Position numbers and translations under genes: made by a program
The notes under the pieces: generated by a model
The model's database searches: none
Told to the model about the DNA's origin: nothing
Seen by the model: the letters and a program-made list of their open reading frames with translations, nothing else
Part shown: in pieces, positions 1 to 461 of the stretch
How the letters are laid out: the number at the start of each line of letters is the position of its first letter
Position numbering within the stretch: position 1 is the stretch's first letter
Assembly: GCA_000004985.1 (NCBI GenBank)
Contig: GG739543.1
Direction: 5' to 3' (one strand)
DNA: 1,127 nucleotides
Origin: Naegleria gruberi
Taxonomy: Eukaryota

Positions 1-461
1 CTCGCTTCATACGAATCCATATTATACGAAACTTGATTCTCTGCTGCCTTTCCAACACAACATCCACAACAACTCTTCATCATTTCTCCCAAACTCCAAC
101 AATAATCTGAGCAACATGACCCACAATCACAACACTCAAAATCACTGCAATCCATTCGTCCACATCCATTCGAACAACATTCGGAACAACTTGAGAAACA
201 CATTCTGCATCCACCTCCAATCATTGAATATCCAGCAATGATACAACAAAATCCAAATGCACCAGCACTCACAGCCCATTTAAATAGTTCAGAATCGGAT
301 TTGGAAGACGAATACGAATAATCACTTGGAGTGTAGAGGAAGAGGACTCCCAGGGCAATACTGACGAATCCAACGATGAAACCAAAGATAATGAGGCCAA
401 TTCCTGCAAAGATGGTGAAAGTGGCCTTTCTATATTCACGCATAGTGTCTCGGAGTGACAT
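1..461 (-). CDS. Partial CDS with the N-terminus in the window and the C-terminus beyond the left edge. Predicted small membrane protein with a cysteine-rich domain. Translation: MSLRDTMREYRKATFTIFAGIGLIIFGFIVGFVSIALGVLFLYTPSDYSYSSSKSDSELFKWAVSAGAFGFCCIIAGYSMIGGGCRMCFSSCSECCSNGCGRMDCSDFECCDCGSCCSDYCWSLGEMMKSCCGCCVGKAAENQVSYNMDSYEA...
   Basis: Hand translation of the minus strand from ATG (complement of 459..461) finds no stop through position 3: 153 codons, frame still open. The start context AACAAAAAAAAAATGTCA has A at -3 and an A-rich leader, matching the yeast-type consensus. A second in-frame Met lies at codon 7. Basic residues (R4, R8, R11, K12) precede a 29-residue hydrophobic segment F15-Y43 (+ coords about 333..419), which fits the positive-inside rule. 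A second hydrophobic, Gly/Ala-rich segment spans W62-G84. A Cys-dense region covers residues 85-135 (+ coords 57..209). The + strand here is G-depleted and C/A-rich, matching a G/T-rich coding strand full of TGT/TGC/GGT codons. The ORF is absent from the supplied track, presumably because no stop lies in the window. Confidence 0.6.
   Translation of the reverse strand, partial: MSLRDTMREYRKATFTIFAGIGLIIFGFIVGFVSIALGVLFLYTPSDYSYSSSKSDSELFKWAVSAGAFGFCCIIAGYSMIGGGCRMCFSSCSECCSNGCGRMDCSDFECCDCGSCCSDYCWSLGEMMKSCCGCCVGKAAENQVSYNMDSYEA

Follow-up and report, generated by a model that had tools for sequence, protein, structure and literature searches.

A predicted membrane hairpin protein restricted to Naegleria gruberi carries a cysteine tail of metallothionein density

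NAEGRDRAFT_75606 of Naegleria gruberi is predicted to be a two-helix membrane hairpin protein with a tail that, next to the membrane, reaches the Cys density of metallothioneins. Database and profile comparisons indicate that the protein is restricted to N. gruberi and that its Cys-rich tail has evolved independently. We tentatively suggest that this tail lies on the cytosolic face of the membrane and is multiply S-acylated, and we weigh this suggestion against metal binding, a young ORF with no specialized role, and a disulfide-knotted ectodomain.

Results

The window holds the 5' part of a gene annotated as a predicted protein

The window, i.e., the whole stretch of DNA that was analyzed, is an AT-rich (34.7% G+C) N. 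gruberi mini-contig of 1,127 nt with two divergent open frames 20 nt apart (Table 1). The minus-strand frame starts with the ATG at 461..459 and runs for 153 codons to base 3, where it leaves the window at the left end with no stop (translation of 461..3, MSLRDTMREY...SYEA). The plus-strand frame extends from the ATG at 482 over 215 codons to the right end of the window.

The minus-strand ORF corresponds to the first 153 codons of NAEGRDRAFT_75606 (XP_002669468.1), a protein of 270 aa annotated "predicted protein." When the Cys-rich fragment was run exhaustively with phmmer against 1.84 billion representative proteins, it matched this one protein, with 100% identity over residues 1 to 153, and nothing else. 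Four sequences make up its 90% cluster. EFC35226.1 ("predicted protein, partial," 150 aa) is the window's own copy, and EFC36724.1 (XP_002669468.1, NAEGRDRAFT_75606, D2W2J2; 270 aa) is encoded on a 175-kb scaffold. The remaining two, L001 and L002, were assembled from the environmental sequencing run ERR1078381. On L001, a contig of 3,785 nt, the full 813-nt ORF is present at 2406-3218 as an uninterrupted single exon, flanked by a Ser/Thr kinase gene on one side and a convergent gene on the other. L001 and L002 differ at five sites in 813 nt, and the presence of both haplotypes in one run implies that the N. gruberi-like organisms in the ERR1078381 sample were heterozygous or formed a mixed population. 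The gene is already in public databases, annotated only as "predicted protein," and a literature search by locus tag, accessions, and run accession returned no relevant paper on NAEGRDRAFT_75606.

Table 1. Features of the 1,127-nt window, listed from the gene as a whole through its parts to the flanking DNA
Feature	Position	Strand	Remarks
Codons 1-153 of a 270-codon single-exon gene	3..461	-	EFC35226.1 (partial) and NAEGRDRAFT_75606 / XP_002669468.1
N-terminus, residues 1-13 (MSLRDTMREYRKA)	423..461	-	4 K/R, net charge +2
Hydrophobic segment 1, residues 14-43, Gly-rich (GIGLIIFGFIVGFVSIALG)	333..422	-	Kyte-Doolittle, AlphaFold2
Short loop, residues 44-58, Ser/Tyr/Asp-rich	288..332	-	Net charge -2
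Hydrophobic segment 2, residues 59-84, small residues (SAGAFGFCCIIAGYSMIGGG)	210..287	-	Holds FCC at 243..248
Cys-dense juxtamembrane module, residues 85-135	57..209	-	17 Cys in 51 residues, five CC doublets
Residues 136-153 (VGKAAENQ...)	3..56	-	C-terminal tail starts at residue 139
A-rich leader of 15 nt before the ATG (ATTCAACAAAAAAAA)	462..476	-	Common to the metagenome haplotypes
Divergent ORF, separate from the Cys protein	482..1127	+	Apparent 5' portion of a repeated, retroelement-like ORF

The window resembles the environmental haplotypes up to position 476, 15 nt upstream of the ATG (L001 2391), and no further. Upstream of the Cys gene, L001 carries the Ser/Thr kinase gene and not the plus-strand ORF of the window. 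The latter matches, at 100% identity, the N-terminal parts of two other N. gruberi "predicted proteins," EFC35537.1 (173 aa) and EFC45516.1 (938 aa), which are encoded on different scaffolds. The AT-richness, the N-runs, and the 20-nt spacer between divergent frames had initially suggested giant-virus DNA, an origin that we rejected because both ORFs of the window are 100% identical to N. gruberi proteins. EFC45516.1 matches Pfam RNase_H with 31.5 bits (cut-off 25.8) and has a GGLGLPS motif upstream of this domain. These matches suggest that the plus-strand ORF begins a repeated, retroelement-like sequence; an exact-match scan of metagenomes for the 5' end of this element returned nothing. The 1,127-nt contig is either an insertion allele in which the promoter region has been replaced or an assembly chimera at the A/T-run junction 476/477.

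The minus-strand frame appears to be translated and under purifying selection

The coding status of the frame was assessed in several ways. First, among 1,000 shuffles of the 813-nt CDS, the longest open frame had a mean of 75 and a maximum of 210 codons vs. the 270 observed. Second, when scored with the codon table of the neighboring kinase gene, the annotated frame was the best of all six. Third, the three DNA haplotypes available for codons 1 to 153, i.e., the window, L001, and L002, are polymorphic at five sites (window positions 450, 447, 147, 114, and 6), and all five changes are synonymous and in the third codon position, two of them being TGT/TGC exchanges in Cys codons. With a synonymous fraction of 20.6% of sites, the probability that all five changes are synonymous by chance is about 4e-4; because all five changes are transitions, we estimate that it is then about 4e-3. 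By contrast, the four amino acid changes seen when all four sequences are compared (A139V, G165V, S to P, and I to T) all fall within the Cys-free tail residues 139 to 270. From these lines of evidence, in which the number of polymorphic sites is small, we conclude that the annotated frame is likely translated and that the hairpin and the Cys module are likely under purifying selection. The strand and frame on which the original prediction was made are thus those of the annotated gene.

On the opposite strand of the Cys module, plus-strand frame 2 is open for ~79 codons (window 2..238) and N/H/S-rich. This open antisense frame is a mirror effect of TGT-rich coding. We considered and rejected the idea that the CA-rich plus strand itself is coding: three of the five polymorphisms would hit second codon positions there, and the frame has no ATG before 116 and a stop at about 240.

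The Cys module is far denser in Cys than local base composition predicts

In the 153-codon frame, Cys occupies residues 72, 73, 85, 88, 92, 95, 96, 100, 105, 110, 111, 113, 116, 117, 121, 131, 132, 134, and 135. C72 and C73 form an FCC motif inside hydrophobic segment 2; the others make up the module, in which CC doublets start at residues 95 and 110 (both ECC), 116 and 131 (both SCC), and 134 (GCC). Six Cys are packed within 16 residues from C85, directly after helix 2, and spacings between Cys in the module are short (x1 to x4). Residues 85 to 138, comprising the module and the following VGK, contain 7 acidic and 4 basic residues (net charge -3), and the module has four aromatic residues (F89, F108, Y120, and W122), four Met, and no Pro. 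A recount bears out the original prediction in its number of Cys, its five doublets, its FCC motif at 243..248, and its mapping of the module, which is exact; its residue range of 85 to 135 indeed spans 51 residues, whereas the string quoted for that range has 54 (85 to 138).

Among the 19 Cys codons, 16 are TGT. The plus strand has a GC skew of -0.67 over 1-225, and the gene strand is G/T-rich there. From the local base composition, 3.0 Cys codons are expected per 51, compared to the 17 observed, and the maximum in 20,000 shuffles of the local bases was 11. Base composition alone does not have the power to explain the Cys density, which is far above chance.

The recurrence of ECC and SCC units had been taken as a hint of internal duplication, an idea that we reject. 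The off-diagonal self-alignment of the module scored 51, a value that 378 of 500 composition-matched shuffles reached and that lies below their mean of 58.3; aligned with each other, the two halves of the module scored 38 against 40 in shuffles. DNA repeats in the region are trivial (a 12-nt x 2.1 array at 167-190 detected by TRF and one pair of 18- to 19-nt repeats with 79 to 83% identity).

The protein is predicted to be a hairpin with both termini in the cytosol

As originally predicted, the module adjoins putative transmembrane (TM) segments. Both segments stand out clearly in Kyte-Doolittle analysis, with 19-residue means of up to 2.79 for segment 1 and means of 1.4 to 1.75 for segment 2, and both are helical in the single-sequence AlphaFold2 model (helix 3-43, pLDDT about 80; helix 56-76, pLDDT about 55); C85 directly follows segment 2. 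Within the Cys module, pLDDT is <50 and, therefore, the model is silent on its structure or folding. Both helices have Gly/Ala/Ser residues at i, i+4 in a GxxxG-like, glycine-zipper-like pattern, which suggests that the hairpin may pack tightly or oligomerize.

Two helices place the N- and C-termini on the same side of the membrane. With 4 K/R in residues 1 to 13 vs. 1 to 2 in the loop, the positive-inside rule assigns both termini and, hence, the Cys module to the cytosol. On the basis of this charge count, we consider an N-in/C-in topology quite probable, with the module in the cytosol rather than the lumen, and the loop would accordingly be lumenal or extracellular.

Beyond the module, tail residues 139 to 270, most of which are encoded outside the window, are free of Cys, acidic, and Q/N/E-rich with a net charge of -17. 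This tail of about 130 residues is probably disordered. It contains one N-x-T sequon (NET), and the end of the protein (...NAPTQV) matches the class I PDZ-ligand pattern S/T-x-V.

No relatives were detected outside N. gruberi

In addition to the exhaustive phmmer search, a word-index search of 5.8 billion proteins gave no match for the 153-aa fragment and only the protein itself for the full 270 aa. With the fragment, the word-index search overlooked an entry of 100% identity that was caught both by the exhaustive search and by the full-length query, and a "no homologue" result from the fragment word-index search alone would thus have been misleading. IMG/VR contained no relative of either protein of the window, and the intergenic DNA pattern had no exact counterpart there; JGI metagenomes contained no relative, phage DNA gave no match, and Rfam gave nothing close to threshold.

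Pfam searches with the whole protein and the module alone (no hit at E<=10) and with the tail returned no family. The hairpin alone gave sub-threshold matches only, to DUF7139 (17 bits vs. a cut-off of 30), DUF2207_C, DUF6249, and Phage_holin_3_6, and these stem from TM composition. The best match in a PDB sequence search was the zinc-ribbon region of ribosomal protein eS31 (E=0.04), which we judged to be Cys-composition noise and discarded.

As a check of functional likeness, we also aligned the module with five Cys-rich proteins or segments, using 500 composition-preserving shuffles of the module for each. The z-scores, taken as leads only, were -0.6 for human MT2A, +0.5 for yeast CUP1, +0.8 for the cysteine string of cysteine-string protein (CSP), -0.3 for granulin A, and +1.8 for the SARS-CoV-2 spike tail; the last is the highest of the panel and non-significant, being equalled by 27 of 500 shuffles. 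These scores indicate that the likeness of the module to metallothioneins, cysteine-string protein, granulin, and the spike tail is compositional only.

Altogether, these searches identify the protein as an apparent species-restricted orphan with no detectable relative outside N. gruberi. The original prediction named no family, and this reticence proved justified since Pfam is empty for both the whole protein and the module.

Discussion

The Cys module may be a multiply S-acylated juxtamembrane tail

We favor, tentatively, a model in which the module forms a juxtamembrane tail that carries several S-acyl groups. Cys residues at the cytosolic ends of TM helices are canonical substrates of DHHC acyltransferases, and such enzymes are assumed to be present in N. 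gruberi from their general distribution in eukaryotes. With both termini in the cytosol, the thiols would stay reduced, and the run of Cys residues would start where helix 2 emerges from the membrane into the cytosol. At least the proximal Cys (C85 to C100, perhaps also C72 and C73) would then probably be S-acylated by DHHC acyltransferases, and this modification would pin the module flat on the inner leaflet. A pinned module could cause the hairpin to partition or cluster in the membrane and could offer the acidic tail to cytosolic partners, while the distal Cys could additionally bind Zn or Cu. S-acylation of at least the proximal Cys heads our ranking because no known determinant of this modification is stronger than position relative to the bilayer, and C85 has the position of S-acylated juxtamembrane clusters, directly after helix 2 (59-84) and on the predicted cytosolic side.

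The suggested design is analogous, not homologous, to that of the coronavirus spike endodomain or cysteine-string protein (DNAJC5). As in those proteins, the predicted architecture consists of a cluster of closely packed Cys residues, CC doublets included, that starts directly at the cytosolic end of a TM helix and leads into an acidic tail. The Cys cluster in the ten-Cys tail of SARS-CoV-2 spike is S-acylated (PMC8379822), and juxtamembrane Cys residues of short TM constructs are S-acylated by zDHHC6 (PMC10520890). However, the module has no homology to the spike and DNAJC5 clusters, is two to three times longer, and contains 7 acidic and 4 aromatic residues; moreover, it is attached to a two-helix hairpin, whereas spike is a type I glycoprotein and DNAJC5 a J-domain protein. 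Known S-acylated clusters are in general shorter (10 to 25 residues) and mostly lack acidic residues. A length of 51 residues with 7 acidic ones, therefore, argues against S-acylation of the module, which in composition (C, S, G, D, E, N, K, and M) resembles fungal Cu-thioneins at least as much.

Metal binding by a membrane-tethered module

The module could alternatively be a membrane-tethered, metallothionein-like domain that forms Cu(I)-, Zn(II)-, or Cd(II)-thiolate clusters, with the hairpin protein acting as a metal buffer, sensor, or chaperone. We consider this reading possible but doubtful. Cys accounts for one-third of the module, at the upper end of the range of metallothioneins (about 15 to 33%, in CC/CxC/CxxC arrangements), and its CC, CxC, and CxxC motifs, its S/G/D/E/N/K spacers, and a CCxCC motif near its end are shared with metallothioneins such as vertebrate MT (PF00131) and the fungal Cu-thionein CUP1. 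The end of the module, KSCCGCCVGK, resembles KSCCSCCPVG of vertebrate metallothionein and KSCCSGK of yeast CUP1. The four Met residues of the module are also consistent with metal binding, Met being a Cu(I) ligand in Ctr-type transporters. The predicted reducing environment of the cytosol fits this reading, and so long a module with acidic residues suits metal binding better than lipidation. In its passages on metallothioneins, a study of copper detoxification in Naegleria fowleri discusses these proteins in other organisms only and names none from Naegleria (PMC7578549), and to the extent of those passages, such a role could be unfilled.

On the other hand, no Pfam metallothionein profile matched at E<=10, even with the module alone, and the alignments with MT2A and CUP1 were no better than those of shuffles. 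Also, the protein is not a small, soluble, aromatic-poor peptide; rather, it has 270 aa and two hydrophobic, predicted TM helices, and its module contains Met and four aromatic residues of a kind that is rare in classical metallothioneins. S-acylation and metal-thiolate formation are not mutually exclusive fates.

In a more specific version of this idea, which we regard as unlikely, the protein would be a de novo membrane-anchored metallothionein of the N. gruberi lineage, unrelated to known families, that holds a Cu-, Zn-, or Cd-thiolate cluster at the cytosolic face of the membrane, e.g., beside a metal transporter.

Other Cys-rich membrane protein families

Membership in other families was also considered. 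CYSTM (PF12734) and PLAC8/PCR (PF04749) proteins combine Cys richness and membrane association in small eukaryotic proteins, and some have been implicated in metal tolerance. However, the Cys residues of CYSTM proteins lie inside a C-terminal tail-anchor helix, whereas the module is polar and internal, with 135 residues beyond it, and PLAC8/PCR proteins have a CCxxxxCPC or CLxxxxCPC motif, whereas the module lacks Pro altogether; neither profile matched. Keratin-associated and other repeat-built proteins consist of tandem repeats (CCxPx-like), of which the module has none. Dispanin/CD225 (IFITM-like) proteins share with NAEGRDRAFT_75606 a small hairpin and an FCC motif in or beside a hydrophobic segment, and the FCC Cys residues of IFITM3 are palmitoylated. 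However, the CD225 profile (PF04505) did not match, and IFITMs have three Cys rather than a 17-Cys module. By these profile and motif comparisons, the protein appears to belong to none of the families tested, and the metallothionein, PLAC8, CYSTM, or keratin-associated membership that the original prediction had raised for checking is not supported.

A young ORF or a disulfide-knotted ectodomain

A further reading, which we consider improbable, is that the ORF is young and lineage-specific and has no specialized biochemical role, with its Cys richness a by-product of T/G-rich low-complexity DNA. ACA/AAC-type N/T/H-rich repeats are common in the N. gruberi genome, and the module would be their antisense. 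The failure to find a homologue anywhere, the CA-rich opposite strand with its N/H/S-rich open frame, the strong GC skew, and the lack of expression data in the literature search are all in line with this idea. However, all five polymorphisms are silent in the annotated frame, and three of them would be second-position changes in the antisense frame, which is moreover interrupted by its stop and lacks an early ATG; the Cys count lies far beyond that expected from the local bases; the module is not built of tandem repeats; and the TM hairpin is well formed.

Among the fates that had been offered for the module, S-acylation and metal binding fit a cytosolic location, whereas a disulfide-knotted ectodomain runs counter to the charge pattern. 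Such an N-out/C-out protein, with the module as a cystine-rich domain outside the cell or in the lumen, could account for the CC doublets, a feature also of granulin, knottins, and other cystine-rich folds, and for the NET sequon in the tail, but we consider it very unlikely: the positive-inside rule predicts that both termini are cytosolic, and thiols are reduced in the cytosol; the 17 Cys are odd in number, whereas granulins and knottins are secreted or extracellular and have an even number of Cys with family-specific spacing; spacings of x1 to x4 leave almost nothing for a core; the likeness to granulin is compositional; no Pfam Cys-rich domain matched; AlphaFold2 gave no confident fold; and export of a 186-residue C-terminal region with a net charge of about -20 behind helix 2 would be unusual.

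Implications for N. gruberi

Cys-rich orphans are common in protists, and NAEGRDRAFT_75606 is one of thousands of "predicted proteins" of N. gruberi, with no clue from neighborhood, homology, or expression. Judged by its polymorphisms, it exemplifies an orphan gene that appears to be already under purifying selection. If the module is S-acylated, as we tentatively suggest, or binds metal, the protein would have an independently evolved, species-restricted poly-cysteine membrane tail and would provide a compact natural test case for how a deeply branching eukaryote copes with extreme Cys density beside the bilayer, by lipidation or by metal clusters.
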